Origin: an uncultured Mycoplasmatota bacterium
GTDB taxonomy: Bacteria > Bacillota_I > Bacilli_A > RF39 > UBA660
Direction of reading: 5' to 3'
Length of the DNA: 64,000 nt
Assembly (NCBI GenBank): GCA_947646095.1
Contig: CANSFI010000001.1
Span: 8,402 to 72,401 of the forward strand
Below are positions 1 through 13,701 of the stretch, one piece after another (within the stretch, counting starts at the first letter, position 1; each line of letters starts with the position of its first letter). The position numbers and the translations under genes are program-made. The notes beneath the pieces were generated by a model. That model searched no databases. It was not told the DNA's origin and saw only the letters and a program-made list of their open reading frames with translations.

Positions 1-1
1 A

Positions 2-829
2 TTAGAAAGTAAAACAGAGATAGAAACGGCTTTAGAAGGAGCAGATATGGTTTTTGTTACCTGTGGAATGGGTGGAGGAACTGGTACTGGTGCAGCTCCA
101 GTTATTGCAGATATAGCTCAACAGATGGGGGCCTTAACTGTTGGTATAGTTACTAAACCATTCTCATTTGAGGGAAGAAAACGTATGGAACAAGCAGTTC
201 AAGGTTTAGCAGAATTAAAAGAACATGTTGATACTTTGATTGTAATTCCAAATGATCGTTTAAGAGAAATAATAGATAAATCAACACCTTTATTAGAATC
301 TTTTAAAGAAGTTGATAATGTACTTCGTAGAGGTGTACAATCAATATCTGATTTGATTGCAGTATCAGGATTAATTAACTTGGATTTTGCAGATGTTAAA
401 TCAGTAATGGAACATCGTGGTAATGCTTTAATTGGTATTGGTATGGGTGTTGGAGAAGGAAGAGCTACAGAAGCTGCTAAACAAGCAGTATCTAGTCCAC
501 TTCTTGAAACAAGCATTAATGGAGCAACTGATGCAATTATCAATGTTACAGGTGGATCTAATTTAACTTTATTTGAAGTAGAAGAAGCAGCAGAAGCTAT
601 TAGATCATCTGCTAATACTGATATAAATACTATATTTGGAGCAGTAATTAACGAAAATTTAAATGATGAAATTATAGTTACAGTAATTGCTACAGGTTTT
701 GATGATGATAAAGAACCTTTATATCGCAACTATAATAAACAAGACGAAGTAGAAAAACTAGAGATTAATGAATCAGATGATGATAGTGATGCTATAATAC
801 CAGCATTCCTAAGAAAAAGAGGATTTTAA
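2..829 (+). CDS. ftsZ: Cell-division GTPase FtsZ, 5' end cut by the window edge
   Basis: Frame is open from nt 2 ([19 protein letters not shown]...). Tubulin signature [15 protein letters not shown], and C-terminal IPAFLRKR tail. Stop at 827-829. Confidence 0.95.
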
Positions 830-939
830 AATATCCTATGTTTTGATATAAATTAACATAAAATTTGCTAAATAATTTTGAAAATATTAAAAACTATGAT
901 ATAATGTATACAGATGAGGAATTCCTCATACAATAAAAA

Positions 940-1168
940 AGAGATATACTTTATTGTTAGGTGTGTCTCAAAATATTTTGGCTATTTCTAGCCGTTTGTT
1001 TTGATAACACTATATCAATTACAAAGATGATAGGTGTTATTTTTTGTCTAAACTTTTTATTAAATATATTATAATTAGTACTAAAGCTAATTCTAACATA
1101 AATACCTTTCCAGTTCATAAGACATCACCTCAATTCATGAGGAACACCTAACAATAAAGTATATCTCT
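940..1168. repeat. Perfect 25-bp inverted repeats (940-964 and 1144-1168) bracketing a 179-bp AT-rich spacer; candidate invertible switch or MITE
   Basis: AGAGATATACTTTATTGTTAGGTGT at 940-964 is the exact reverse complement of 1144-1168. The spacer holds a minus-strand TTAGAA-17-TATAAT (1096-1091 and 1073-1068). Flanks are TAAAAA-like on both sides. Confidence 0.9.
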
Positions 1169-1287
1169 AAAAACATTATACTAGAGATTTAACTTAAAGT
1201 AAACTTAATTCGTTAATTTTTTATTGATTATTTTGGATTTAATAAGTCAAAATTTATATTATAATTTTAATCATTAATGTAAATTTG

Positions 1288-1296
1288 TGATATAAT
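1288..1296 (+). promoter_or_regulatory. Extended -10 (TGaTATAAT) in front of the ancestral pilin start
   Basis: TGATATAAT at 1288-1296, 25 nt upstream of ATG 1321, followed by RBS AAGGAG. The -35 is poor. AT-rich background limits confidence. Confidence 0.3.
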
Positions 1297-1320
1297 TAAT
1301 AAAGAAAGGAGAATTAAAAA

Positions 1321-1341
1321 ATGAAAAAGAAAGGATTTACA
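1321..1341 (+). pseudogene. Orphaned 5' end (MKKKGFT) of a prepilin gene severed by an IS insertion
   Basis: RBS AAGGAG plus ATG AAA AAG AAA GGA TTT ACA. The pilin-like reading ends exactly at the IS left terminus (1342). The same GFT codons reappear at 2765-2774 and continue as LIELLAV. Confidence 0.75.
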
Positions 1342-2766
1342 CCAATGCTGTCAACTTAAGGATAGACATTCATAATACTATCTGTTAAAATGAAAATAGA
1401 GGTGGTATGTAGATGTCGTTATATACTAAGCTTACTGGTATAAATAAAACAATAGCTGCTACTTATGAAAAAAACTGTTGGAAACTTAAAGAAACATCAT
1501 TTATAAGAAATAGAAAGATGGATTATGAAACATTAGTTAAAAGTATAATATTCAAAAAAGGACAGACATTGGTATTAGAAATAGACGAATTTACAAAAAA
1601 AATGGAGACACAAAAAATAACAAAGCAGGCATATTCAAAGCAAAGACAAAATTTAGATCCTAAAGTATTTAAACATTTAAACGACGAATATATAAAAAAA
1701 ATATATGAAGAAATAAAAGTAAAAAGATATAAAAAGTATATAGTAATATCAGTAGATGGAAGTACAATCGAATTGCCAAATAGCGAGGAATTAAAGAAAC
1801 ATTATGGATTGTGTGAAGGACAAAAAGGAAGTGTAGGAAGAGTAAGGGCAAAATCATTAGGTATATACGATAGTTTAAACAAAATAATGGTAAAAAGTAA
1901 TATAGATCCATATAACGTAAGTGAAAAATATCAAATAATAAAAATGCTAGATGAAGTAAAAGAGTTCTACAAAGAAGAAGAAATAATAATGGTATTTGAT
2001 AGATATTATTTCGGAATATCATTTATAAATATGTTAGAAGAAAAAGGAATAAAATATTTAATGAGAATGAGATAAAATCACTATAAAAAAGAGAAAACAG
2101 AAATGAAAAGCAAAGATGAAATAGTGAAATTAAAAGTTAGAAAAAATAGTATATTTTATGCGAATGAAGAGGAAAAAGAAAAATTAAAAGAAAAAAATAT
2201 GTGGAAACAAGAATAATAAAACTAACATTAGAAACAGGAGCCGAAGAACATTTAAGTACTAATTTAAGCAAGGAAGAATTAAGTATAAAAGAGGCAAAAG
2301 AACTGTATTTTACAAGATGGAATATAGAAAAATCATTTGATATAATAAAAAACAAATTAAATATAGAAAATTTTTCTTCAAAAAAAGTAATAGGAGTAGA
2401 ACAGGAGTTTTATGCCCAAATTATGGTATATAATATGATAGAAGATTTAAAAAGAGATGCAGAAGAAGGAGTAAAAAAGAGACATATTTAAAATATGAAT
2501 ATAAAATAAACATGAATATATTGGCAGGAAAATTTAAGAAGGAATTTATAGAAGTATTAATATCACCAACTGTAGAAGAAAGTACAAAAAGATATATGAA
2601 TATGATAGAAGAATTAAGAAAAAATGTTGTGCCAATAAAACCAGGAAGAAGATTTGAAAGAAGAAAAATGCATAGTATGAATAAGTATAGAAGTAATTTA
2701 AGGAGAAATGTATAATGAAAAAGTATTTAAAAACAAAGGGAAAAGAGTTTAAGTTGACAACATTGG
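1342..2766 (+). mobile_element. IS4-family insertion sequence (1425 bp), transposase inactivated
   Basis: Terminal IRs are CCAATGCTGTCAACTTAAG (1342-1360) and the reverse complement of 2748-2766 (17/19 match). An 8-bp direct repeat GATTTACA lies at 1334-1341 and 2767-2774. The internal DDE transposase carries the Y-x2-R-x3-E-x6-K signature (YFTRWNIEKSFDIIK). Confidence 0.85.
1413..2715 (+). pseudogene. IS4-family DDE transposase broken into three ORFs
   Basis: In-frame TAA at 2073-2075 with homology continuing after it (NHYKKEKTEMKSKDEIVKL). Frameshift in the A-run near 2190-2200. Second frameshift in the A-run at 2473-2478 (KKETYLKYEYKINMNILAGKF continues in another frame). Confidence 0.85.
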
Positions 2767-3815
2767 GATTTACACTTATAGAATTACTTGCAGTAATAAT
2801 AATACTCTCTATAATAGCCCTAATTACAGTACCAGTAATAATGAATATAATAGAAAGAGCTAATAAGAGTGCATTTAAAGATTCAGCATATGGAATAATC
2901 AAAGCAGGTGAATTACATTATGCTGATAAACTATTAGATCATGCTGGTATGACAAATGATATAACATTTACTTTTCCTGAAGCTACAGGACTAGATATAA
3001 AAGGATCAAGACCAAAAAGTGGAAATATGAAAGTAACTAAAGATGGTAAAATAGAACTTGCTATAAGTAATGGAAAATGGTGTGCTAGAAAAAGTTTAAA
3101 TGAAGAAGAGATAACTATAGATAATAATATAAAAGATTGTTCATTAATAAAAATACCAAATCCAATCATAATAACAAATAATAATTGTCTAACAGAAGGA
3201 ATATGTGAAAATGGAGTATTAGTAAATGTCAAAGTAAACGATACAGAAAACCATAATTTCTATGTAATTGGTGATACAAATGGAGAATTAACACTAATAA
3301 TGGATAGAAATTTAGGAAGTGATGTGGAATGGATAACTAAAGAAGATTATTTAGCAGCAGGTGGTACAAAAAGTTGGGTATCTTATGGAAATAATGATAA
3401 AGGTCCACTAACAGCTTTAAAAACTTTAGAATATAGAACTAAAAATTGGTCTAATATAGATGCTTATGATTATGAATTAATAGATGATAGCAAAGAAAAT
3501 GTATATCAGCCAATAAAAATAGCTGGTGCTAGAGCAAGATTGTTAACTTTGACAGAAGCAAAAAATTTGGGATGTGAAAGTGCTTTGGTTGAAAAAAGTT
3601 GCCCAGAATATTTATATGATAATTTATTTAGTACTAATCATGCAGATGATCAAATAGCTTATTGGTTGTCTACAGCAACTAAGAAATCTTCGTTTTATGC
3701 AGCTTACAATAAATATTTTATGTATTATAAAGGAACTTTTAAAAGTTATGCAAATGTTAGTATTGGGAATCGCCAAGGACTTCGCCCAGTTATAAAAATA
3801 TCTAAAACTATATAA
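2715..3815 (+). CDS. Prepilin-type N-terminal cleavage/methylation protein (paralog 1) with IS-encoded leader and a large C-terminal module
   Basis: MKKYLKTKGKEFKLTTLG|FTLIELLAVIIILSIIALITVP is a class III signal. ATG 2715 and RBS AGGAG (2701-2705) lie inside the IS right end. The C-terminus ends GLRPVIKIS and is paralogous to 9257-10336. Confidence 0.8.
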   Translation: MKKYLKTKGKEFKLTTLGFTLIELLAVIIILSIIALITVPVIMNIIERANKSAFKDSAYGIIKAGELHYADKLLDHAGMTNDITFTFPEATGLDIKGSRPKSGNMKVTKDGKIELAISNGKWCARKSLNEEEITIDNNIKDCSLIKIPNPIIITNNNCLTEGICENGVLVNVKVNDTENHNFYVIGDTNGELTLIMDRNLGSDVEWITKEDYLAAGGTKSWVSYGNNDKGPLTALKTLEYRTKNWSNIDAYDYELIDDSKENVYQPIKIAGARARLLTLTEAKNLGCESALVEKSCPEYLYDNLFSTNHADDQIAYWLSTATKKSSFYAAYNKYFMYYKGTFKSYANVSIGNRQGLRPVIKISKTI

Positions 3816-3822
3816 TTTAATA

Positions 3823-3860
3823 AAAGAATTAGAAAAATAATAAATTTCTAATTCTTTTTG
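3823..3860. terminator. Bidirectional rho-independent terminator between convergent genes
   Basis: 13-bp perfect stem AAAGAATTAGAAA / TTTCTAATTCTTT with a 9-nt loop. T-run on the plus strand and A-run on the other side. Confidence 0.7.
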
Positions 3861-3862
3861 CA

Positions 3863-4183
3863 TTATTCTGATATTTTAATTTTAATAGTTAAACTTTTTT
3901 TTAATTTCATTATTAGTATAAATCCTAAATATAAAATAATAGAAAAAATTAAAAAAATAACTATAAAAAATAATGGAAATATAATTAGGTTTATTATACC
4001 TGATAAAACACCTGGTTCTTTTGTACCTATATTTAAATAAACATAAAAATAAGTACTAAATAAATTAAATAAGGCCCCAAAGCAAGCGATAATCCCAGAT
4101 ATAATACCTGAACCTAAAGCACCAATTAAAATTAATTTGATATAAGAACTAAAACTAATTTTTTCTAATTTCGTTTCTTTCAT
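3863..4183 (-). CDS. Small hypothetical membrane protein (three predicted TM helices)
   Basis: 106-aa ORF with hydrophobic segments, convergent with pilin 1. No recognisable family. Confidence 0.45.
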   Translation of the reverse strand: MKETKLEKISFSSYIKLILIGALGSGIISGIIACFGALFNLFSTYFYVYLNIGTKEPGVLSGIINLIIFPLFFIVIFLIFSIILYLGFILIMKLKKSLTIKIKISE

Positions 4184-4315
4184 AAAGTCCCTCCTAAATT
4201 AATTATATCAACATTTATAAATAATTTATATATTTATGTTACAATTTTGTAATGATGTTTGTCACTTAATTGTAATATAAAATTAATATAATTATTTTCT
4301 AAGGAGAATATTTAT

Positions 4316-5173
4316 ATGGCTAAAAAAAGATTAAAGAAAAAATTTAAATTAATATTTAAACTTTTGATTATAATACCTTTATTAATTTTAATAAAAAATG
4401 TTATTTTTACTAAAAAATTAGAAAAGAGGATAAAACCAGATTTTCAAGTATTAGAAGAAAATATAGATGAAAAATATGCCTATTTACCTCAAACAGATAC
4501 ATTTGATAAATTAAAACAATTAATAGAAAAAGATAAAAAAGTAGAAAAAATTTTAGATAATTATTTAGAATATCCAGAAGATCTTTTAATGATGTTATCT
4601 AAAAATATTGAAATGTTAGATTTTGTTTTAGAATTTAATAATCAAAAAGGAAAAACACTTGATGATAATGTAGGTAAAATAAAAAAAGATGAAATCCCAT
4701 TATTGTTACAATGGGATAAAAGATGGGGTTATACCAAATATGGAGATAATTATTTAGCAATAAATGGATGTGCCCCCACAACTCTTTCAATGGTTATAGC
4801 AGGACTTACTGGTAACAATAAAATTACACCAGCTGTTATTTCTAAATATGCTAAAGAAAATGGATACTATGTTGAAGGAATTGGAACAAGTTGGGATATT
4901 ATGACAGTTGGAGCTAAACACTTTGGTATTACTGGTACTAATATAAACTTAAATAAAAACGATATATATTATTATTTAGAAAATGGAAATCCTATAATTT
5001 GTAGTATGGCACCAGGTGATTTTACTACCACAGGACACTTTATAGTATTGACACAAATAAAAAATGGAAAAATAAAAGTAAATGATCCAAATAGTAAAAG
5101 TAGAAGTAATAAGCTATGGGATTATGAAATATTAGAATCACAAATAAAAAACTTATGGGTATTTCAAAAATAG
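4316..5173 (+). CDS. Membrane-anchored C39-like cysteine peptidase domain protein
   Basis: N-terminal TM anchor. WDKRWGY...INGCAPTTLSMV (catalytic Cys context) and GHFIVL...NDPN (His context), as in the C39-like (YvpB-type) family. Confidence 0.65.
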   Translation: MAKKRLKKKFKLIFKLLIIIPLLILIKNVIFTKKLEKRIKPDFQVLEENIDEKYAYLPQTDTFDKLKQLIEKDKKVEKILDNYLEYPEDLLMMLSKNIEMLDFVLEFNNQKGKTLDDNVGKIKKDEIPLLLQWDKRWGYTKYGDNYLAINGCAPTTLSMVIAGLTGNNKITPAVISKYAKENGYYVEGIGTSWDIMTVGAKHFGITGTNINLNKNDIYYYLENGNPIICSMAPGDFTTTGHFIVLTQIKNGKIKVNDPNSKSRSNKLWDYEILESQIKNLWVFQK

Positions 5174-5186
5174 ATAGGATGATTTT

Positions 5187-6011
5187 ATGAAAAGAAAAAC
5201 ATTAACACAAACTCTACCATTTTTATTACCAATTAGAATATGGCAAAGAAATTTATTTTTTAAGATATCATTATATTTTGATAAAAATATATATTCTAAA
5301 AGGATAGGTGATGAACTTAAATATGAAGTATGTAAAACAAAAACTTTGATGATTAATGAAAATAGTGGTTATAATATTATTTATCAAAAAAATAAAGTCC
5401 ATAATTTAAAAATTATTAGTAAAACAATGAATAAAATATTAATTTATCCAAATGAAACATTTTCTTTTTGTTATTTACTTAAAAATACAAAAAAATATGG
5501 AAAACTAAAAGAAGGACTTATTTCAGTTAACAATAAAATAATTACTAAAAAGGGTGGAGGTTTATGTCATTTAAGTAATTTATTATATTATTCTTTCCTA
5601 TTAACGCCTCTTACTATAGTTGAAAGGCATGGTCATAAAGTCAAATCCCTTCCTAATCCTGATCAAAATTCTTTAGAAGGTGTAGATGCTACAATTAATA
5701 GTGGATGGCTAGATTTAAAAGTAAGAAACGATACTAAAAACATATATCAAATTATAATTGATTTTGATCAGGATTATATGTATGTAAAAATACTTTGTAA
5801 TAAAGATTTAAACTTTTATTCTACTATTATAAATGATAATTTTGAATATATAAAAAAGAATGACAAAATATATGAAAGTGTATCTGTAATTAAATTAACA
5901 AAAGATAAAAAAACAGATAGGATTGTAAAAAAACAGAAACTATATGATGAAGTTGTTTTAATTAATTATGAACTTCCTAAGAATGTAAGGATAAGAAAAT
6001 TAAATGATTAA
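5187..6011 (+). CDS. VanW-family protein
   Basis: KKGGGLCHLSNLLYY...IVERHGH...GVDATI...DLKVRND matches the VanW-domain core. Confidence 0.8.
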   Translation: MKRKTLTQTLPFLLPIRIWQRNLFFKISLYFDKNIYSKRIGDELKYEVCKTKTLMINENSGYNIIYQKNKVHNLKIISKTMNKILIYPNETFSFCYLLKNTKKYGKLKEGLISVNNKIITKKGGGLCHLSNLLYYSFLLTPLTIVERHGHKVKSLPNPDQNSLEGVDATINSGWLDLKVRNDTKNIYQIIIDFDQDYMYVKILCNKDLNFYSTIINDNFEYIKKNDKIYESVSVIKLTKDKKTDRIVKKQKLYDEVVLINYELPKNVRIRKLND

Positions 6012-6981
6012 AGACAAATACTTAAATATTGATTTATACAGATTAATTGCCTCTTTTTTAGTTGTTGCTATTCATACATATCCATTAGATTTTATAAGCC
6101 CTAATTTAGATTATTTTTTTACTAGAATTTTATTTAGAATTGCTGTTCCTTTATTTGTTATGATAACAGGTTATTATATTATACCCAGAGCTTTAAAAGA
6201 TAAAAATGAATTAAAAAAATATACATTAAAAATAATAAAAATATATTTAATTAGTATAATAATTTATTTACCACTCAATATATATAATGGTTATTTTAAT
6301 AACTTTAATATTTTTACTTTTATTAAAGATATATTTTTAAATGGTATATTTTATCATTTATGGTATTTTCCAGCTTTAATATTAGGGTTATGGTTAACTT
6401 ACTTTATTATAAAAAAATTTAAATTTAAAGTAATAATTACACTTATTAGTCTACTTTATATAATTGGTTTATTTGGAGATAGTTATTATTATTTAATTAG
6501 TGATAATTTAATATTAAGAAATATTTATGATTTTATTTTTATATTTTTTGATTATACAAGAAACGGTTTATTTTATATACCAATATTTCTTTATATGGGC
6601 TATTACTTTAATAATAAAAAATTTAACAAGTTAAATATATATTTAATTATATCCTTAATCCTTATGATGATAGAAGGTATTATTCTATATATATTTAAAA
6701 TTCCTAAGCATAATAGTATGTACTTATTTTTAATTCCTACAATGTTTTTAATATTTAATTTTATAATTAATAAAAATTTAAAAACAGATAAAAAAATTAG
6801 AAATTGTGCAACTTATTTATATATTATGCACCCATTATTTATAGTAATAATTAGACTTTTATCTAAAATATTAAAATTCAAAACTTTAAATAATAGTTTT
6901 ATTAATTATATATTAGTTATATTATCAACAATACTATTTATTTCATTAATTAATAAACTAAAAAAATATAAAAAAGGATGA
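6004..6981 (+). CDS. Acyltransferase family 3 integral membrane protein
   Basis: About 10 TM helices. N-terminal LDIYRLIASFLVVAIHTYP motif typical of acyltransferase-3 / OatA-like proteins. Overlaps the vanW-like stop by 8 nt. Confidence 0.7.
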   Translation: MIKDKYLNIDLYRLIASFLVVAIHTYPLDFISPNLDYFFTRILFRIAVPLFVMITGYYIIPRALKDKNELKKYTLKIIKIYLISIIIYLPLNIYNGYFNNFNIFTFIKDIFLNGIFYHLWYFPALILGLWLTYFIIKKFKFKVIITLISLLYIIGLFGDSYYYLISDNLILRNIYDFIFIFFDYTRNGLFYIPIFLYMGYYFNNKKFNKLNIYLIISLILMMIEGIILYIFKIPKHNSMYLFLIPTMFLIFNFIINKNLKTDKKIRNCATYLYIMHPLFIVIIRLLSKILKFKTLNNSFINYILVILSTILFISLINKLKKYKKG

Positions 6982-6985
6982 TTTT

Positions 6986-7465
6986 ATGAAACAGAAAAAA
7001 CTAACTTATATTTTATTTATTATTTATATATTACTTTTATCTTGGCTTATATTATTTAAAATGCAATTTGATTTAAGATTACTTCCAAATATTAGAATAA
7101 TTAATTTAATCCCTTTTAATGAATCTATGCAAAGTGAAGTAATAAACAATATATTAGTTTTTATTCCTGTAGGTATTTATATAACTATACTTTGGAAAGA
7201 TAAAAAAATTTATTATAAAATAATTTTTGTTATTATACTTTCTTTAATGTATGAAATTATACAATTTATATTTGGCATAGGGATAACTGATATAACTGAT
7301 ATCCTTATGAATACATTAGGTGGAACTATTGGAATATTTATTATATATTTAATATATAAAATATTTAAAAATGAAAAAATAGATAAAGTATTAAATATTT
7401 TAGCTTTAATTTCAACTATATTTATACTATCATTTATTTCAATATTAATTATAGCAAATCTCTAA
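6986..7465 (+). CDS. VanZ-family membrane protein
   Basis: INLIPF...NILVFIPVG...YEIIQF...DITDILMNTLGGTIG pattern of VanZ-like proteins. Confidence 0.75.
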   Translation: MKQKKLTYILFIIYILLLSWLILFKMQFDLRLLPNIRIINLIPFNESMQSEVINNILVFIPVGIYITILWKDKKIYYKIIFVIILSLMYEIIQFIFGIGITDITDILMNTLGGTIGIFIIYLIYKIFKNEKIDKVLNILALISTIFILSFISILIIANL

Positions 7466-7495
7466 GACATTAATATTAATTTATTGATGTCTTTT
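7464..7495 (+). terminator. Rho-independent terminator after the vanZ-like gene
   Basis: AAGACAT (7464-7470) pairs with ATGTCTT (7487-7493), followed by a T-run. Confidence 0.45.
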
Positions 7496-7595
7496 ACGTT
7501 ATAATAGAAATATCAAGTAATTTTATTCTATATGTAAAATAGATTTGATAGACTATATATATCTTAATATATAGTTTTTTTAAAAGAGGAAAACT

Positions 7596-8105
7596 ATGAG
7601 TTTAGATAAAAAAATAGTCGAAATTAGAAAAAATAATAATTTAAGTCAAGAAGACTTAGCTGAGATTTTAAATGTATTAAGACAAACTATTTCTAATTGG
7701 GAAAATATGAAATGTTATCCTGATATACAAACAATTATTATAAGCGATCAGTTTAAAATATCACCAGATGAATTATTAAAGGATGATATGAAAATGGTAA
7801 AAGACATTGATGAAAAAGTTTCTAAAAATTCTAAATTAAAAATTATAATAGCTATATTAACTATGTTAATATTTTTAGTGTTTTCGTTTTTAATTTTAAA
7901 AAACTATATAGGTAGTGAAAATAAAAGGAAAAATGAATCTATATATCAAAAAATTATAATCAATTTAAATATATTAAGTTTTGAAAAGATGGATGATATT
8001 GCTTTTTCAAATTTAATAGAAAATGGTGTCAAATATTCTATATATTCTAAAATGCCAGAAGTATTAGAAAAAGGTATCTCTGCTAGATACTTGATGAAAT
8101 ATTAA
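7596..8105 (+). CDS. XRE-family HTH regulator with a C-terminal TM segment
   Basis: LSQEDLAEILNVLRQTISNWENMKCYPD helix-turn-helix, then a hydrophobic helix IIIAILTMLIFLVFSFLIL. Confidence 0.75.
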   Translation: MSLDKKIVEIRKNNNLSQEDLAEILNVLRQTISNWENMKCYPDIQTIIISDQFKISPDELLKDDMKMVKDIDEKVSKNSKLKIIIAILTMLIFLVFSFLILKNYIGSENKRKNESIYQKIIINLNILSFEKMDDIAFSNLIENGVKYSIYSKMPEVLEKGISARYLMKY

Positions 8106-8433
8106 TGCTATTTGATTATAATGATGATAGTGTAGAAATTACGTATAAATAAAAAATGTAGTAACATTATATTGTAATAAACAATGAGATTAAAAAATGA
8201 CAAAACAAATAGTATAGAGATTTATAATGATAATAAAGAAAAAACAAAAGAAGTAATTAATAAGATGGTAGAATTATTTGATGAAATATATAAATAAAGA
8301 TTGATTCTAAAGGGACTGTCATGAAATAAAATAATTTTATGCAGTTTTTAAATTTTAATTTATTTAAAATATAGACAAAAAGATATTAATGTTATAAAAT
8401 TAATATAGAAATAAACAATAAAGGAGTGAAATA

Positions 8434-9111
8434 ATGAAACGAGGATTTACTTTAATAGAATTACTTGCAGTAATAATACTTCTTTCTATTATAGCCTTAA
8501 TTACTGTGCCAACCATTATGAATATAATAGAAAAAGCTAAAAAAAGTTCATTTAAAGATAGTGCTTATGGAATTATTAAAGCAGGAGAATTAAGTTATTC
8601 AAAAAAATTATTAGATCCAAATAGTACATTAACAGATATGGCATTTACTTTTCCAGAAGCAGAAGGACTTGAAATAAAAGGAACAAAACCTAAAAGTGGG
8701 ACAATGATAATAAATACAGAAGGTAAAGTAAGTCTTAGTATAACTGATGGAAAATATTGCGCTAAAAAAGATTATAGTGATGATAATATAACAATAACTG
8801 ATAATGTAGAAGATTGCAAGGAAACTAAAAAAGCTATGAGAAGATCAATGATAGTTAATAAATTGATAACTGACTTAAAAGTATCAGAAACAAATATAGA
8901 ATTAAATTTAAATGAAAGTCGTTTTATAACAGCAACAATAAGTCCAAGTGATGCGACTAATAAAAGTTTAACATGGATGACTGAAAATCCTTCTATAGTT
9001 ATAGTAGAAGTTGGCAAAGTAACAGGGTTAAGTAAGGGAACAACAAAAATAACAGTTGAAGCAATGGATGGAAGTAATATCAGAAAAGAAATAAATATAA
9101 CAGTAAAATAA
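8434..9111 (+). CDS. Prepilin-type protein (paralog 2) with a canonical short leader and a C-terminal Big_2-like Ig domain
   Basis: MKRG|FTLIELLAVIILLSIIALITVP. The first ~110 aa are highly similar to paralog 1. The C-terminal ATISPSDATNKSLTWMTENPSIV...GTTKITVEA resembles bacterial Ig-like group 2. Confidence 0.85.
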   Translation: MKRGFTLIELLAVIILLSIIALITVPTIMNIIEKAKKSSFKDSAYGIIKAGELSYSKKLLDPNSTLTDMAFTFPEAEGLEIKGTKPKSGTMIINTEGKVSLSITDGKYCAKKDYSDDNITITDNVEDCKETKKAMRRSMIVNKLITDLKVSETNIELNLNESRFITATISPSDATNKSLTWMTENPSIVIVEVGKVTGLSKGTTKITVEAMDGSNIRKEINITVK

Positions 9112-9122
9112 AAATAATTATA

Positions 9123-9140
9123 ATGAAATTAGGATTTACA
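9123..9140 (+). pseudogene. Orphaned ancestral start (MKLGFT) of pilin paralog 3
   Basis: ATG AAA TTA GGA TTT ACA, then TCAATTAAG. This resembles the IS left end CCAA[TGCTGTCAAC]TTAAG with 10 nt missing. The reading frame closes after 5 more codons. Confidence 0.55.
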
Positions 9141-9305
9141 TCAATTAAGATAATTTAAAACTAATAAATAATTGATAAAACCAATATCAAAATATAATTT
9201 GAAATAAAATAATTAAATTATTTTCATATAAATATAAACAAATTGGAGGAATAATAATGAAAAACAATACATTGAAAAATGAAAAGAAAAAGATCACAAC
9301 ATTAG
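9141..9305 (+). mobile_element. 165-bp scar of the same IS4-family element (both ends retained, body deleted)
   Basis: Left: TCAATTAAGATA versus IS CCAATGCTGTCAACTTAAGGATA. Right: AAGATCACAACATTAG versus IS AAGTTGACAACATTGG. It is followed by CCTTTACA where the intact copy has the duplicated GATTTACA. ATG 9257 lies 49 nt from the scar end, versus 52 nt in the intact IS. Confidence 0.55.
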
Positions 9306-10336
9306 CCTTTACATTAGTAGAATTAATAGGGGTAATAACACTACTTGGATTAATCATGATAATAGTAACACCACCAATAATAAATCAAATAAGAAATAGT
9401 GAAGGTAAACTAGATGAAGCAATAGAGACTTTAATTTATTCAGCTACTGATTTATATATAGATAGTAAAAAAAATGATTATCCTAAAAATAATGATAATA
9501 TATATTGTGTAACATTAAAAGAATTAGTAGATGATGGAAAATTAAAAGAACCAATTTTAAATAGTAAAGGAAAAGAAATAGATTTAAATAAATATGTAAA
9601 AATAGAAGTAAAAAATAACCAATATAAATATTTAATAACAGATGAATGTAGTGGTATAATACAAAGTAGTATTTTAACATCTACTGATGCTTGTTTAAAA
9701 GATGGTAGTGTTTGTTCAAATGGAGTATTAGTAAACGTTAAAGTAAATGATAATGAAGATTATGACTTTTATATAATTGATGATGATGGTGAAAATCTAA
9801 CACTTATAATGAATCAAAACTTGGGTGATAATGTTGCTTGGATAATTAAAGAAGATTATATAGCTTTTGGAGGAACTACATCTACTTGGAGTAATAGTAG
9901 CAGCGGTAGAATTAATACGAAAGGTCCAAGAACAGCACTTAAAACATTGGAAGAAAGAACATCTGATTGGACAAATATACCATTAATGACTTATGTATTA
10001 ATAGATGATAAACCAGATGCTGATGGAACAACAGCAAGATATTCACCAATTGAAATAAAGAATCTAAGAGCAAGAATGTTGACTTATACAGAAGCAGTAT
10101 CATTGGGATGTGAATTTAATAAAAGTGGTTCTTGTCCAGAGTATTTAAGGGAAAATTTAGTTGTTGCATCAACTTCAGGACAACCATCAGCATATTGGTT
10201 ATCAACAGCCCGTTCTTTCTCCAATACTTATACAGATGCATTTAAAATAATGACAAATACTCTTGGCGGTGATTATGCATATGATATTAATTTTACAGGA
10301 GTAAGACCAGTAATAAAAATTTCTAAAAAAGCATAA
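9257..10336 (+). CDS. Prepilin-type protein (paralog 3) with IS-scar-derived leader and Ala at position -1
   Basis: MKNNTLKNEKKKITTLA|FTLVELIGVITLLGLIMI. The C-terminal ~200 aa are paralogous to 2715-3815 (NGVLVNVKVND..., YWLSTA..., GVRPVIKIS). Confidence 0.8.
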   Translation: MKNNTLKNEKKKITTLAFTLVELIGVITLLGLIMIIVTPPIINQIRNSEGKLDEAIETLIYSATDLYIDSKKNDYPKNNDNIYCVTLKELVDDGKLKEPILNSKGKEIDLNKYVKIEVKNNQYKYLITDECSGIIQSSILTSTDACLKDGSVCSNGVLVNVKVNDNEDYDFYIIDDDGENLTLIMNQNLGDNVAWIIKEDYIAFGGTTSTWSNSSSGRINTKGPRTALKTLEERTSDWTNIPLMTYVLIDDKPDADGTTARYSPIEIKNLRARMLTYTEAVSLGCEFNKSGSCPEYLRENLVVASTSGQPSAYWLSTARSFSNTYTDAFKIMTNTLGGDYAYDINFTGVRPVIKISKKA

Positions 10337-10340
10337 AACG

Positions 10341-10365
10341 ACACTAAATATAGTGTTTTTTTTTT
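10341..10365 (+). terminator. Rho-independent terminator directly upstream of spoIIGA
   Basis: ACACTA-AATA-TAGTGT hairpin followed by 9 T residues. Confidence 0.6.
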
Positions 10366-10385
10366 ATAATGAAAATGGTGATAAA

Positions 10386-11174
10386 ATGAAAATATATTTA
10401 GATTTAGTTTTAATTCTTAATTTTATCTTTGATTTTTTATTACTTGCATCAGTGTCAATATTTTTAAGAAGAAACGTAACTTTAACTAGACTTATTTTAG
10501 GAGCTTTTATAGGAAGTATTAGTATATTATGTTTATTTATAAATATCAATTCATTTGAACTATTTGTAATTAAAATATTTATAAGTATTTTAATGGTATT
10601 AATAACATTTAATTATAGAAGTATAAAATATACTTTAAAAAATATGTTTTATTTATATACAACTAGTATGATATTAGGAGGATTTTTATATTTCTTAAAT
10701 GTAGAGTTTTCTTATAAACAAATAGGTATGGTTTTTTATCATAATGGACTTAGTATAAATGTAATAGTATTAATAATTTTATCACCACTAATACTATATT
10801 TTTATACAAAACAAATTAAAGAGTTAAAAAATAATTATAGTAATTATTATAAAGTAAAAATAAAAATGGATAAGCATATAATTAATTGTAATGGATTTCT
10901 AGATACAGGAAATAAATTAGAAGATCCATACTTTCATAAGCCAGTTATAATTTTAGATAAAAGAAAAATAGTTTTTGATATAAACGAATTTGAAATGATA
11001 TTAGTACCAATTCTAACAGTAAATGGTACTAGTATGATTAAGTGTTTTAAAGCAGATTATATAGATATAGAAGGAATAGGAATTAAAAATAATTTTTTAA
11101 TAGGTATTATGGAAGATAAAATTAAAATAGATGGAGTAGATGTAATTTTAAATACTAAGTTATTGGAGGGATAA
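10386..11174 (+). CDS. spoIIGA: Sigma-E processing aspartic peptidase SpoIIGA
   Basis: MKIYLDLVLILNFIFDFLLL with multi-TM N-terminal half, catalytic GFLDTGNKLEDP, position immediately before sigE, and RBS GGTGA. The upstream in-frame ATG at 10353 lies in the terminator. Confidence 0.9.
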   Translation: MKIYLDLVLILNFIFDFLLLASVSIFLRRNVTLTRLILGAFIGSISILCLFININSFELFVIKIFISILMVLITFNYRSIKYTLKNMFYLYTTSMILGGFLYFLNVEFSYKQIGMVFYHNGLSINVIVLIILSPLILYFYTKQIKELKNNYSNYYKVKIKMDKHIINCNGFLDTGNKLEDPYFHKPVIILDKRKIVFDINEFEMILVPILTVNGTSMIKCFKADYIDIEGIGIKNNFLIGIMEDKIKIDGVDVILNTKLLEG

Positions 11175-11175
11175 G

Positions 11176-11868
11176 ATGATAAAGAAAATAATTGATTTTA
11201 TAATTAGAATTTTTAATGAAAATGTTGGTATTTTTTATGTTGGAAGTGCTGATAAATTACCAGAACCATTATCTAAAGAAGAAGAAATTAAATATGTTGA
11301 ACTTTCTATGAATGGAGATGAAATGGCAAGAGCAAAACTTATAGAACATAATTTAAGATTGGTAGTTTTTTTATCTAAAAAATATGAAAATACTAATGTA
11401 GATTTAGAAGATTTAGTAAGTATTGGAACAATAGGTTTAATTAAAGGAGTTAATACTTATAAATTAGACAAAAATATTAAACTTGCAACCTATGCATCTC
11501 GTTGTATAGATAATGAAATATTAATGTTTTTAAGGAAAAATAAAAAAAGAAGAGGAGAAGTAAGTTTTGAAGATAGTTTAAGTTATGATGCTGAGGGAAA
11601 TGAACTACACTTAGAAGATATTTTAGGAACTGAATCTGATATAGTAACTAAAAACTTAGAACAAGAAACAGATAAAAAACTATTATATGACGAAATATCT
11701 AAATTAAATGGTCGTGATAAACAAATAATGATTTTAAGATATGGATTATATGGTAGAGAAGAAATGACTCAAAAAGATGTAGCAACTGTTTTAGGAATAT
11801 CACAATCATACATATCTAGAATTGAAAAAAAAGTTATTAGAAGACTTAAAAATTTAATGAAAATATAA
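11176..11868 (+). CDS. sigE: Sporulation sigma factor E (pro-sigma-E)
   Basis: N-terminal pro-sequence, then YVGSADKLPEPLSKEEE, LIEHNLRLVVFLSKKY, ATYASRCIDNEILMFLRK, and a region 4 HTH. RBS GGAGGG. Confidence 0.93.
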   Translation: MIKKIIDFIIRIFNENVGIFYVGSADKLPEPLSKEEEIKYVELSMNGDEMARAKLIEHNLRLVVFLSKKYENTNVDLEDLVSIGTIGLIKGVNTYKLDKNIKLATYASRCIDNEILMFLRKNKKRRGEVSFEDSLSYDAEGNELHLEDILGTESDIVTKNLEQETDKKLLYDEISKLNGRDKQIMILRYGLYGREEMTQKDVATVLGISQSYISRIEKKVIRRLKNLMKI

Positions 11869-12215
11869 TTAATTATTTTAGAATAATAAAAAGGACGATT
11901 ATGAAATAGATTTATAATTGTCTTATTTTAATATTAATTGTTTGATCCAAGTTTTATGATTATTGGTAATATGTTGTTTTTTTTTAATATCAATAAAAGG
12001 TTTTGTTGATAAAGTTAAAAAGTACGAAGATATTATATATGAACATTAAGATGAAGAACTTAAAAGATAAAATATAATATATTTATTCTAAAAATAATTT
12101 ATTTTTATATTCAAAAGTTATTTTCCTAATTATAAAGTATATTTAATTATTTAAAGAGTAATAAGTATAGATAAAAAATATAAAGAAGCGAGACATACAA
12201 AAATATACTATAATT

Positions 12216-12243
12216 AATAAAAAAGCAAAATGTTATCTTGCTT
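12216..12243 (-). terminator. Terminator of the minus-strand sigG-containing unit
   Basis: On the minus strand AAGCAA-9 nt-TTGCTT is followed by TTTTTT. Confidence 0.45.
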
Positions 12244-12295
12244 CTGTTATGAAAAGTTATTATTTACATTAAGATTTTATTTTACAATTAATTAA

Positions 12296-12820
12296 CTACC
12301 TTTTTTTATAAGTTTTAACAAAAGGTTGTTTTTCTTTTTCTAATTCATCTATTTTAGTATCTATCTGTTTAACTAATTCATCATCAATTTCTTCTTTTGT
12401 TTCAAATTGATTGAATGATTCTATATTATTTATACTTTCCTTAGTTTCTTCTTTAGTTGATTTATTATTTATAACACATTTTACTGAATTATTAGAATCT
12501 GAATTATCTTCATTTTTTAATTTTTCATATTTTTCTTTTAATTTTTCATATTTTGGATTAGTTAAATTATCATGTAAAACATAAGAGAAAAATGTTAAAG
12601 AAATTCCACCTGTCATTAGAGTTCCTATTAATGGTAAGAGAAAGTTTGTAACAATTGGTAGCGATATAATACATCCAACACATATAATATCTAACATAAT
12701 TTTAAATGGACCAACTAAATCAGGAACTGACTTTCCAATTGGGAAAAATGCATCAAAAAGAGCTTCTTTTCTATATTCTTTAATTTCATTTTTTATTTTT
12801 TTTAATTCATTATTTTTCAT
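12296..12820 (-). CDS. Hypothetical membrane protein with an acidic/lysine-rich C-terminal tail
   Basis: 174-aa ORF with two hydrophobic helices, downstream of sigG on the same strand. No family recognised. Confidence 0.45.
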   Translation of the reverse strand: MKNNELKKIKNEIKEYRKEALFDAFFPIGKSVPDLVGPFKIMLDIICVGCIISLPIVTNFLLPLIGTLMTGGISLTFFSYVLHDNLTNPKYEKLKEKYEKLKNEDNSDSNNSVKCVINNKSTKEETKESINNIESFNQFETKEEIDDELVKQIDTKIDELEKEKQPFVKTYKKR

Positions 12821-12907
12821 AATTCACCTCTTTAATGGCTAATATTATAATATAAATGTATGAATTTGTAAATAAAAAAATGATAATAAAAATTACCATT
12901 AAAATAA

Positions 12908-13684
12908 TTATTCAACCATTTTTTTAATGTTATCAATACCACTTTTTTCAAGTCTGGATATTTGAGCTTGTGATATTCCTAATTCATTTGCAAGTTCTAC
13001 TTGTGTTTTGCCAACTAAAAATCTTTCACATAAAATAAATCTTTCTTTTTCTTTTAATTTATTTAAAGCCTCTTTAACAGCTATTTTAGTATCTAAATCA
13101 TAATAATTATCTTTTTTGTCTTCTAATTGATCAGATAAATAAATAGTATCACTACCATCATTATATATAGGTTCAAACATACTAATAGTATCTTTCATAG
13201 AATTTATAGCCATAGCTACATCAACTTCTGGAACATTCATAGCTTGAGCTATTTCTTTAATACTGGGTTCTCTTTCGTTATTAATAGACAATTCTTCTTT
13301 TTTTTGTAATGCATGAAATGCTAAATCTTTAATACTACGAGATATTCTTACACTACTATTATCTCTTAAGTATCTTTTAATTTCCCCCATAATCATAGGA
13401 ACACTATAGGTAGAAAATTTAACATCATAATTTAAGTCAAAATTTTCAATAGCTTTTATTAAACCAACACATCCAACCTGAAATAAATCATCCATATTTT
13501 CATTTCGATTAGTAAACTTCTTTAAAATACTTAATACTAATTTTAAATTACAATTAATAAGTCTATCTTTCGCAAAACAATCACCTTCATGCATTTTTTT
13601 AAATAGTGTCATTTGTTCTTCATTAGATAAGACTTCAATATTCGCAGTATTCACGCCACTTATTTCTACTTTATGACGTGACAT
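12908..13684 (-). CDS. sigG: Forespore sigma factor G
   Basis: MSRHKVEISGVNTANIEVLSNEE..., DDLFQVGCVGLIKAIENFD, FSTYSVPMIMGEIKRYLRDNSSVRISRS. RBS AAGGAG 7 nt before ATG 13684, so the ORF-track start at 13699 is less likely. SigF cannot be fully excluded by eye. Confidence 0.85.
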   Translation of the reverse strand: MSRHKVEISGVNTANIEVLSNEEQMTLFKKMHEGDCFAKDRLINCNLKLVLSILKKFTNRNENMDDLFQVGCVGLIKAIENFDLNYDVKFSTYSVPMIMGEIKRYLRDNSSVRISRSIKDLAFHALQKKEELSINNEREPSIKEIAQAMNVPEVDVAMAINSMKDTISMFEPIYNDGSDTIYLSDQLEDKKDNYYDLDTKIAVKEALNKLKEKERFILCERFLVGKTQVELANELGISQAQISRLEKSGIDNIKKMVE

Positions 13685-13701
13685 ATTATCTCCTTTCATA
13701 T

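Follow-up and report, generated by a model that had tools for sequence, protein, structure and literature searches.

In the window, the 64-kb stretch of DNA analyzed here, a pilin gene is interrupted at its prepilin cleavage codons by a decayed copy of an IS4-family insertion sequence (IS; 1343–2765, 1423 bp) that has 91.2% identity to an intact 1425-bp copy, L143; unless noted otherwise, features lie on the plus strand. Upstream of the IS, the normal short-leader pilin start described in an earlier sequence-only reading is present in all its parts: the original Shine-Dalgarno (SD) sequence AAGGAG (1306–1311) lies 9 nt upstream of ATG 1321, and the orphaned start reads MKKKGFT and then PMLST and a stop codon into the left inverted repeat (IR) of the IS (1321–1359). 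A candidate extended −10 promoter of the interrupted gene, TGATATAAT (1288–1296), was recognized by eye and is absent from the list of our consensus scan. The gene context of the window includes ftsZ-spoIIGA-sigE.

The ends of the IS were set by comparison with other copies. Because the base that follows the left duplication depends on the target (C before CAATG in the window, T before CAATG in L001, L124, and L173), we take CAATG...CATTG as the true ends. The left IR, CAATGCTGTCAACTTAAG (1343–1360), was found by a repeat search of the window sequence, and the right IR, with the reverse complement CAATGTTGTCAACTTAAA (2748–2765, minus strand), encodes the leader residues K-L-T-T-L; the two are 18 nt long and match at 16 of the 18 positions, and two terminal IR matches were observed versus 0.07 expected by chance. 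They are flanked by a target-site duplication of 10 bp, GGATTTACAC, of which the left copy (1333–1342) was read in the sequence and in other copies, while the right copy (2766–2775) supplies the codons for Gly(−1), Phe(+1), and Thr(+2). Because the duplication is 10 bp long, the entire Gly codon comes from the duplicated target. An IS with IRs flanked by a direct repeat had been proposed before and is borne out, but with revised dimensions: the termini 1342 and 2766 were off by one base on each side and the duplication is 10 rather than 8 bp, both by comparison with other copies, and the IRs given as 19 bp with 17 matches are 18 nt with 16. The same reading had held that other copies whose ends do not coincide with 1342 and 2766 would speak against it; the other copies shift these positions by one base on each side.

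The right end of the IS carries an SD sequence, AGGAG (2701–2705), within the Arg-Arg codons conserved at the transposase C-terminus, followed by ATG 2715, which overlaps the transposase stop TAA (2713–2715) as TAATG, and by the replacement leader MKKYLKTKGKEFKLTTL plus Gly (2715–2768). In an ORF scan, this leader opens a fused prepilin ORF of 366 aa with a DUF1566-type modular pilin body (2715–3815), beginning MKKYLKTKGKEFKLTTLG/FTLIELL (slash, cleavage site). Class III type IV pilins have a hydrophilic leader ending in Gly, Phe at +1, Glu at +5, and ~21 hydrophobic residues. The fused ORF has these features, reading MKKYLKTKGKEFKLTTLG/FTLIELLAVIIILSIIALITVP and scoring 23.3 bits with TIGR02532 (cutoff 16.3), and its leader length falls inside the range of 6–26 hydrophilic residues ending in Gly of natural pilin leaders (PMC4471445). 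Thus, the SD, the ATG, the in-frame leader, and the regenerated Gly-Phe class III site that had been ascribed to the IS right end are all there, and SD, ATG, leader, and pilin ORF are intact despite the decay of the transposase. From the sequence, we infer that the replacement leader with its Gly is a legitimate class III signal peptide and that the fused pilin is expressed and processed by prepilin peptidase. A motif scan combined with N-terminal inspection of 57 ORFs recognized no prepilin peptidase, ATPase, platform, or pilus-assembly genes in the 64-kb window.

The suggestion that the insertion placed expression under IS-internal signals holds for the translation signals only. A promoter consensus scan gave 25 promoter-like sites versus 28.3 expected and turned up no outward promoter in the IS right end that we found convincing, and the scan for terminator-like sites found none inside the IS; an Rfam search of positions 1–12000 gave no match. 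A candidate transposase promoter (TAGACA, 17 nt, TGTTAAAAT; 1363–1391), proposed by consensus only, matches at 10 of 12 positions and has TG before the −10. A likelier source of transcription is read-through that begins at the pilin promoter or at the transposase promoter.

The transposase pseudogene (1413–2715) has TAA at 2073–2075 and frameshifts near 2191 and at 2470–2481. Alignment with L143 traced the stop to a GAA-to-TAA change at 2073 and the frameshifts to the loss of 1 nt near 2191 and, at 2470–2481, the loss of 2 nt combined with the gain of 1 nt, in agreement with the earlier description of a transposase killed by one nonsense mutation and two frameshifts. The accompanying statement that the arrangement is fixed may be too strong: because the window IRs are nearly intact, an intact copy could mobilize the window IS in trans, although all sampled strains carry it.

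Four transposase pieces in the window match Pfam DDE_Tnp_1, and the intact homologous transposases have 434 aa. Assignment to the IS4 family was upheld by NCBIfam NF033592 (transpos_IS4_1; 162.1 bits versus a cutoff of 115), with other IS-family models far under their cutoffs. The ISfinder definition of this family comprises D(60-110)D(100-150)E, Y(2)R(3)E(6)K, and a duplication of about one helical turn (PMC2266710). In alignment A1, D115, D196, and E306 are invariant, at spacings of 80 and 109 residues, as are Y299, R302, E306, and K313 (window copy, YFTRWNIEKSFDIIK); the C-terminal residues M420–N433 (MHSMNKYRSNLRRN), including the Arg-Arg codons, are invariant or nearly so. The window pseudogene retains VDGS, FDRYY, and WNIEK, and exact 10-bp duplication pairs are present in the window, L001, L124, L154, L173, and L171. 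For the IS4 subgroup, the end signature -AATR--------WTW----, a length of 1400–1650 bp, and duplications of 10–13 bp have been described (PMC2266710); here, CAATGCTGTCAACTTAAGGA has AATG at positions 2–5 and TTA at positions 14–16, and the element is 1423–1425 bp long. The left end agrees with that of E. coli IS4 at 14 of 20 positions (a 20-nt comparison reaching 1362), and the transposase is only 19% identical to E. coli InsG (E 8e-12). None of the annotated plasmid transposase copies exceeded 31% identity to the clade transposase. Placement in the IS231 subgroup, prompted by a similar IR core, was rejected: the ends here begin CAAT rather than the CAT of IS231, and the IS4-subgroup signature fits better. 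IS231 is confined to the Bacillus cereus group (PMC2266710).

Insertion sites of related copies

We define the IS clade as IS4-family elements with 434-aa transposases, of which copies were sampled from many assemblies. All readable junctions (16 distinct left flanks and 17 distinct right flanks) lie at one position in prepilin genes and in one orientation, and at 16 other left junctions an M-K-K-x-G-F-T start abuts the left IR. The clade target consists of A-rich leader codons, then GGWTTTACNY (the Gly-Phe-Thr codons), and then TNATWGAA. Around the site, ~10–20 bases are conserved to the left, and highly conserved pilin N-terminal coding DNA lies to the right. In low-GC Bacilli genomes, an unbiased IR scan returned only copies at pilin starts (L027, L033+L071, and L067), an unbiased transposase-based metagenome scan returned five close relatives, all five at pilin starts, and 23 contigs with three different intact transposases had pilin junctions only. 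Six loci (window, L001, L124, L154, L173, and L033+L071) have exact 10-bp duplication pairs; because these pairs comprise four different sequences, we argue that they arose by separate transposition events. In the L067, L123, and L125 assemblies, the left and right duplications differ at 1–2 positions, which we tentatively ascribe to assemblies that became chimeric where IS copies are identical. L144 shows an apparent junction of a right end, 10 bp, and a left end. Transposase specificity may not be the whole reason for the constant orientation, as disruptive insertions in the opposite orientation could have been lost.

Outside the clade, the distant relative L171 (40% identical) has an exact 10-bp pair at a non-pilin insertion site, and the 128 nt between its transposase stop and right IR hold no called gene or leader ORF. 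Relatives in other phyla have recurring, lineage-specific targets, and in many phyla, related IS at non-pilin sites carry the conserved IR at both ends. The recurrence of the same junction and orientation throughout the clade contradicts a one-off accident at a single locus. As judged from these junctions, we conclude that the IS clade targets pilin starts in a site-specific manner.

Leader modules in diverged copies and in the window

Right ends of the clade were compared in 12 variants, all of which keep SD, ATG, and a Lys-rich leader in frame through the IR. The SD usually lies within the last Arg-Arg codons of the transposase, and in most of the full-length variants, transposase stop and ATG share bases (TAATG, TGATG, or ATGA). 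The leaders have 16–21 codons (48, 51, 54, or 63 nt, all multiples of 3), made up of 11–16 Lys-rich codons and then K-L-T-T-L encoded by the IR, with a net charge of +4 to +6; frame 0 is without stops and frame +1 has 1–3. An open frame is expected by chance with a probability of 0.17–0.39 per variant, and because the variants share ancestry, the product of these probabilities overstates the significance. In the wider IR family at non-pilin sites, an SD with an in-frame ATG is present at 3 of 133 ends. A short-query protein search for KLTTLG-led pilins returned short fragments only and added two variants, P0234 and P0235. Wherever the pilin ORF following an IS right end is complete, it is open (112–483 aa).

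Miniature inverted-repeat transposable elements (MITEs) are short, non-coding, and bounded by the IRs of the parent element and a target duplication. L173 contains such an element (4870–5054): it is 185 bp long, its IRs are perfect, its GGATTTACAT duplication is exact, and it retains SD, ATG, and leader ahead of a 445-aa pilin.

A second IS-derived leader lies in the window itself. Downstream of an unoccupied pilin paralogue, MKRG/FTLIELL (8434–9111), with an intact target GGATTTACTT at 8443–8452, the orphaned start of a third pilin (ATGAAATTAGGATTTACAT, MKLGFT; 9123–9141), of which 9132–9141 form the left duplication, is followed by a 163-bp decayed relic of the same IS type (9142–9304), as aligned to the 185-bp miniature of L173. 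The relic retains a left-end remnant CAAT..TAAG, the SD GGAGGA, and ATG 9257, and its leader MKNNTLKNEKKKITTL runs through a degenerate right IR; its duplication is mismatched, and the MITE features are present only in decayed form. Inspection of the ORF from this ATG identified an intact 359-aa pilin on the relic-derived leader (9257–10336; …ITTLA/FTLVELIG). Thus, almost all of the IS sequence is gone, yet the pilin ORF is open in 23%-GC DNA. The organism has at least five pilin paralogues; P0006 is a paralogue in the same organism that adjoins the S10 operon and is not an orthologue of the window pilin.

Among strains, the fused 366-aa ORF is intact in at least three other assemblies, and the arrangement is present in all those sampled. 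An IS-free allele of the window pilin was not found in a protein search, in which only the fused 366-aa form matched at 99% and all further matches were paralogues at ≤66%; the protein cluster of the fused pilin has two members, both of 366 aa. The pilin differs between strains at six sites, five of them non-synonymous, which are too few to inform on selection and fit diversifying selection and relaxed constraint equally. The sequence-only reading had named a KLTTLG leader in IS-free relatives as evidence that would overturn it. Among the top homologues, 117 of 120 lack such a leader and start instead with a short one or with a plain upstream extension. The native leaders of the pilin family have Lys, Arg, or Asn next to the Gly; the fused leader has T-T-L at −2 to −4, a departure that counts against our reading. 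The earlier proposal that the gene was not knocked out is favored by comparative evidence: the module is kept in the 12 variants and the 185-bp miniature, and the second window pilin is intact.

Origin of the fused pilins

We consider it probable that the window element is a decayed member of an IS4-family clade that inserts at prepilin cleavage codons with its own restart module. The staggered 10-bp cut duplicates the Gly-Phe-Thr codons, leaving one copy with the orphaned start and placing the other before the pilin body. In our working model, transcripts that read through from the promoter of the pilin, that of the transposase, or both would probably yield a transposase-pilin message, and translation from the IS ATG would give a prepilin in which a basic leader of 17–22 residues with a terminal Gly precedes an unaltered F-T-L-I-E-L helix. 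Because the replacement leader would restore the prepilin, insertion would be cheap for the host, and the many pilin paralogues per genome would act as safe landing sites. We lean, with some reserve, toward the broader proposition that the clade and its miniatures are riders of pilin genes that recognize cleavage-motif DNA and have evolved a transposase-coupled surrogate RBS, start, and basic leader, such that each insertion rebuilds a working class III signal peptide and the miniature is a mobile leader/expression cassette that rewires the expression of pilin paralogues.

The same target choice would be seen if the IS were pilin-specific and its insertion either knocked the gene out or was neutral, the paralogue being redundant, with SD, ATG, and leader incidental to A-rich, Lys-codon-rich DNA or serving only the IS, by coupling to transposase termination or by ribosome transit of the right end. 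The redundancy of pilins in this organism, the appreciable chance of an open frame in any one variant, and the mostly non-synonymous strain differences are in line with this account. However, ATG, SD, and frame are kept in 12 of 12 diverged variants, with indels in multiples of 3 only, the miniature keeps the module without a transposase to serve, the 359-codon pilin ORF behind the decayed relic is open in DNA of 23% GC, the complete downstream pilin ORFs are all intact, and the module is essentially absent from relatives that do not target pilins (3 of 133 ends). Taken together, we regard a knock-out or neutral hit as rather unlikely.

If a single ancestral insertion had instead been copied between pilin paralogues by homologous recombination or gene conversion, the highly conserved pilin N-terminal coding DNA right of the site could have provided homology, and the duplications that differ at 1–2 positions in L067, L123, and L125 would be accommodated. 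We find this very unlikely, given that only ~10–20 bases are conserved to the left, that exact 10-bp pairs of four sequences at six loci are as expected of independent staggered cuts, that the targets include unrelated pilin bodies of 112–483 aa, that relatives in other phyla have recurring targets specific to their lineages, and that strong target specificity has been described for the IS4 subgroup (PMC2266710). Viewed in isolation, the window copy is compatible with an ordinary IS that by accident landed once at cleavage codons, with an end that by chance was open and in frame. However, more than 16 independent pilin loci from many samples share its junction, orientation, and leader module, and the window itself contains a second case (9142–9304), making such an accident extremely improbable. 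Finally, the KLTTLG leader could be ancestral to the pilins and its likeness to the IS end secondary, for instance if the IS captured pilin sequence, and such leaders do exist without an upstream transposase gene (P0231 in L173 and the window gene at 9257). At both of these loci, however, orphaned original starts are present, with both IRs and an exact duplication in L173 and with remnants of both ends and a mismatched duplication in the window relic; moreover, the K-L-T-T-L codons are the right IR, which is conserved at non-pilin IS ends across many phyla, and 117 of the 120 top homologues are without this leader. We consider an ancestral leader barely conceivable.

If the fused pilins are made and processed, the clade would exemplify how a transposon can find safe harbors in signal-peptide DNA that is conserved throughout a large gene family, and its insertions would be a natural experiment on the tolerance of prepilin peptidase for different leaders. 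Pilin paralogues may then be re-regulated via transposase coupling or the miniature cassette, and mechanistic work could draw on an IS4-family transposase that is site-specific by nature and whose 10-bp-plus target is defined. For annotation, it is relevant that gene callers list the fused ORFs as ordinary long-leader pilins (P0001, P0010, and P0070) and miss orphaned starts and miniatures.

Comparison with known systems

Insertion sequences are usually viewed as gene breakers and, at best, as accidental promoter donors. Some members of the IS4 family show "spectacular apparent insertion specificity" (De Palmenaer, Siguier and Mahillon 2008, PMC2266710). The clade shares with the IS4 subgroup, represented by E. 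coli IS4, a single-ORF DDE transposase, the Y(2)R(3)E(6)K motif, a length of 1423–1425 bp, the ends, and a duplication of 10 bp (10–13 bp in the subgroup). It differs in that its target is a protein-coding motif common to a gene superfamily and in that its right end carries a translation-initiation and leader module; for the IS4 family, such a module is absent from the 2008 review (PMC2266710).

IS1397 and ISKpn1 target REP/BIME sequences (Tobes and Pareja 2006, PMC1525189) and, like the clade, land specifically and at low cost in a sequence that is conserved and present in many genomic copies. REPs are extragenic, whereas the clade site lies inside an ORF and the cost of insertion would be offset by the built-in replacement N-terminus. 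The terminal sequence of IS231A contains …TCAACTTAAG…, and in 1994 Hallet et al. reportedly observed that this element prefers the ends of Tn4430 as target. IS231A, with duplications of 10–12 bp, thus has in common with the clade a similar terminal sequence, marked target specificity, and miniature derivatives, but its targets are non-coding transposon ends and it is not known to repair an interrupted gene.

The clade appears to combine sequence-specific targeting of a protein-coding motif with a built-in replacement N-terminus, a strategy known from integrating phages and ICEs; in the papers searched, we found no account of an IS that does so, nor anything relevant on IS insertion at pilin cleavage sites or on restoration of an N-terminus by an IS. 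Temperate phages and integrative elements that insert in tRNA genes or in icd (phage 21/e14) bring a replacement gene end. In both cases, the mobile element supplies a surrogate for the displaced part of the gene, and the target stays functional, as we suggest for the fused pilins. Those elements, however, use tyrosine or serine recombinases and a homologous duplicate, whereas the clade combines a DDE transposon with a non-homologous leader, and the duplication regenerates the cleavage site. IS1, IS2, IS256, and ISAba1 have outward-facing or hybrid promoters and resemble the clade in that signals at the end of the IS drive an adjacent gene. These elements give transcription signals to any neighbor, whereas the signals of the clade are translational (SD, ATG, and in-frame peptide) and are delivered to one target position.

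Boundaries of the insertion and the fused pilin gene

The interrupted pilin gene retains its original Shine-Dalgarno (SD) sequence, AAGGAG at 1306-1311, and its original start codon, ATG 1321, which opens ATG AAA AAG AAA GGA TTT ACA C (MKKKGFT). Directly after these codons lies the left end of the insertion sequence (IS), CAATGCTGTCAACTTAAG…; its right end, …TTTAAGTTGACAACATTG, finishes at 2765, and the adjoining GGATTTACAC TTATAGAATTACTTGCA codes for G-F-T-L-I-E-L-L-A. An independent repeat search of the window recovered the terminal inverted repeat (IR), and a degenerate IR pattern has two sites in the 64 kb, both of them IS ends, versus 0.07 expected by chance. We set the precise ends by comparison with L001, a locus of the same arrangement in which GGATTTACT T precedes the left end (CAATGCTG…) and the right end (…CAACATTG) is followed by GGATTTACTT. 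Because the base at 1342 differs with the target (C in the window, T in L001), it is not part of the IS, which spans 1343-2765 (1423 bp, CAATG…CATTG) within a 10-bp target duplication, GGATTTACAC, at 1333-1342 and 2766-2775. The sequence-only reading had recognized an IS at the prepilin cleavage codons with its own SD, ATG and leader, all of which can be read in the sequence, but its termini at 1342 and 2766 were each off by one base, and its 8-bp duplication is an exact 10-bp pair of a kind that recurs in L124, L154, L173, L033+L071 and, at a non-pilin site, in the distant relative L171 (GGTGTGCGTC). With a 10-bp duplication, all three bases of the Gly codon come from duplicated target sequence.

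Four ORF fragments between the IS ends match Pfam DDE_Tnp_1 and, when rejoined, NCBIfam NF033592 'IS4 family transposase' (162 bits; cutoff 115). Alignment with an intact 1425-bp copy in L143 (91.2% identity) bears out the claim that the transposase is dead, revealing a nonsense change (GAA>TAA at 2073) as well as indels: one nucleotide is missing near 2191, and at 2470-2481 two are missing and one is added. A replacement SD, AGGAG at 2701-2705, precedes ATG 2715, which opens a fused prepilin ORF of 366 codons that begins MKKYLKTKGKEFKLTTLG/FTLIELLAV… and scores 23.3 bits with TIGR02532, a model of prepilin N-termini (cutoff 16.3). The same dead IS and fused ORF are present in at least three other assemblies (L166-L168), with 1-3 differences between strains in the IS and 6 in the pilin, 5 of them non-synonymous; homologue and cluster searches found no IS-free allele of this pilin in the protein collection.

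The organism has 23% GC and sporulation sigma-factor genes. Its pilin paralogues adjoin housekeeping loci, lying between ftsZ and spoIIGA-sigE (window 1-13700) and, in L169, on the 5' side of the S10 ribosomal operon, and no pilus-assembly genes were found near them in window 1-13700, L169 or L173. Between ftsZ and the pilin promoter region, a 31-nt inverted repeat (arms 940-970 and 1138-1168, 94% complementary, enclosing 167 nt), with neither an Rfam match nor a second copy in the window, may represent a further small element, either mobile or structured.

Site- and orientation-specific insertion at pilin starts

The IS-type leader is absent from 117 of the 120 top-ranking homologues of the fused protein; most of these have short leaders like MKKKG/FT, and a few are extended N-terminally, in frame, by sequence that bears no relation to the IS end. 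The other three, P0001, P0010 and P0070, are different pilins with an IS-type leader ending KLTTLG/FT. Three further searches were run independently of pilin sequence. The IR TTAAGTTGACARCATTG, scanned against one genome per species, belongs to a huge IS family found in many phyla; the copies from low-GC Bacilli MAGs (L027, L033+L071 and L067) all lie at pilin starts. A profile of 30 intact 434-aa transposases, scanned against metagenome contigs, returned five close relatives (L123, L124, L125, L136 and L140), all adjoining G-F-T-L-I/V-E-L, and exact look-up of the intact transposases P0121, P0132 and P0143 yielded 23 contigs in which all readable junctions are pilin junctions. Pooled over these searches, all 16 distinct left flanks read …ATG-(Lys-rich)-GGNTTYACNY/IS and all 17 distinct right flanks IS/GGNTTTACNY-TNATWGAA…, with the transposase reading towards the pilin body at every site. 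The interrupted pilins range from short (112-116 aa) to modular (333-483 aa), and all complete ones are open ORFs. These data show that insertion at GGWTTTACNY is specific for both site and orientation and produces a 10-bp duplication, and make pilin targeting by this IS clade essentially certain. L171, with a 40% identical transposase, similar IRs and 128 nt without a leader ORF between transposase stop and right IR, marks the edge of the clade. The earlier proposal that the insertion was no knock-out is supported by comparative evidence, but the arrangement should be recast as an evolved behaviour of a pilin-targeting IS clade rather than a one-off.

At L067, L123, L125 and L152/L153, left and right duplications differ at 1-2 positions, or a shared left flank leads to right flanks that differ from sample to sample. 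These mismatches probably reflect chimeric assembly across identical IS copies, the alternative being IS-mediated recombination between pilin loci. At L144 1-60, one contig carries a right IS end, GGATTTACAT and a left IS end in succession, which could be tandem copies arising by a second insertion into the regenerated target, or a circular or assembly junction. In L140 (2800-4090), a second IS of IS3-like two-ORF organisation is nested on the opposite strand between the transposase gene end and the right IR, parting the leader module from the pilin.

The leader module and pilin expression

We compared the right ends of twelve variants: ten full-length types, one miniature element and a relic in the window. 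Their leader segments measure 48, 51, 54 or 63 nt, all multiples of three, and encode a net charge of +4 to +6; the pilin frame is free of stops in all twelve while frame +1 has 1-3. By shuffling, the chance of an open frame is 0.17-0.39 for each variant, and the product, 2e-7, is only a bound because the variants are related. In most full-length variants the SD, AGGAGG or AGGAGA, comes from the transposase C-terminal Arg-Arg codons within an almost invariant C-terminus (…MHSMNKYRSNLRRN[VI] in the transposase alignment), and the leader ATG overlaps the transposase stop (TAATG, TGATG or ATGA), a classic layout for translational coupling. In L001 and L136 the ATG lies a few to about 20 nt 3' of the stop; a distinct SD, AAGGAG, is present 5' of the ATG in L001 and in the miniature element. 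Away from pilin sites, an SD with an in-frame ATG and no intervening stop occurs at just 3 of 133 ends from the wider IR family. This comparison shows that SD, ATG and leader are conserved at the IS right end, in frame with the target.

The miniature element, a 185-bp derivative bounded by perfect IRs and flanked by an exact 10-bp duplication, GGATTTACAT, lies at L173 4870-5054 and also occurs in L003, L174 and L175. L173, whose sample also yielded a strain of the window organism, bears a 445-aa pilin preceded by the orphaned start ATGAAAAGAAAAGGATTTACAT, the element and an AAGGAG-ATG-MVKNILKNKNKSLKLTTL module, without a transposase. The element's AT-rich interior has TATAAT-like sequences and could hold a promoter. 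The relic (9142-9304), a decayed 163-bp remnant of the same IS type, follows the orphaned start ATGAAATTAGGATTTACAT (MKLGFT; 9123-9141) and comprises a remnant CAAT..TAAG and some 110 bp of AT-rich sequence; GGAGGAATAATAATG…ATCACAACATTA/GCCTTTACAT then leads into a pilin of 359 aa (9257-10336) that is intact and has Ala, not Gly, at position -1. Because the IS has largely eroded while 359 codons stayed open in 23%-GC DNA, this pilin is the best available evidence that selection still maintains a gene on an IS-derived leader. In a third paralogue (8434-9111) the target, GGATTTACTT, is unoccupied.

The fused prepilin would be translated from the IS-borne start and cleaved after Gly; according to Strom and Lory (1991), reportedly, only Gly(-1) is critical for cleavage. 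Transcription could come from the pilin promoter (candidate TGATATAAT at 1288-1296), a candidate transposase promoter (1363-1391) or both; a sequence scan found no terminator-like site inside the IS and a promoter scan no convincing outward promoter. Because natural class III leaders have 6-26 hydrophilic residues with Gly at the end (PMC4471445), the basic 17-22-residue IS leader is within range. The insertion probably restores a functional pilin gene.

Relation to known elements

The window-type element has the features by which the IS4 family is assigned (PMC2266710): DDE spacing of 80 and 109 residues, a Y(2)R(3)E(6)K motif, single-ORF organisation and a target duplication of roughly 10 bp. 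Both ends conform to the IS4-subgroup signature and agree with the left IR of E. coli IS4 at 14/20 positions; identity between the clade's transposase and E. coli InsG is only 19%. Within this subgroup, strong target specificity has been noted before (PMC2266710). A genome contig scan (L004-L122) located elements bounded by the terminal repeat TTAAGTTGACAGCATTG in Chlamydiae, Cytophagales, Ignavibacteria, Clostridia and methanogens, with a recurring flank peculiar to each lineage (for example AGCGGACGCT, GGTGAACATGTAC, GTATGCAATACGCCC or CCCCAGAGGGGAAGG), which suggests that target specificity is lineage-specific across the whole IR group. Our literature search found no description of an element that pairs a protein-coding target with both a cleavage site regenerated by duplication and its own substitute translation start and leader; functionally, the nearest parallel is with phages and ICEs that bring a new end for their integration-target gene.
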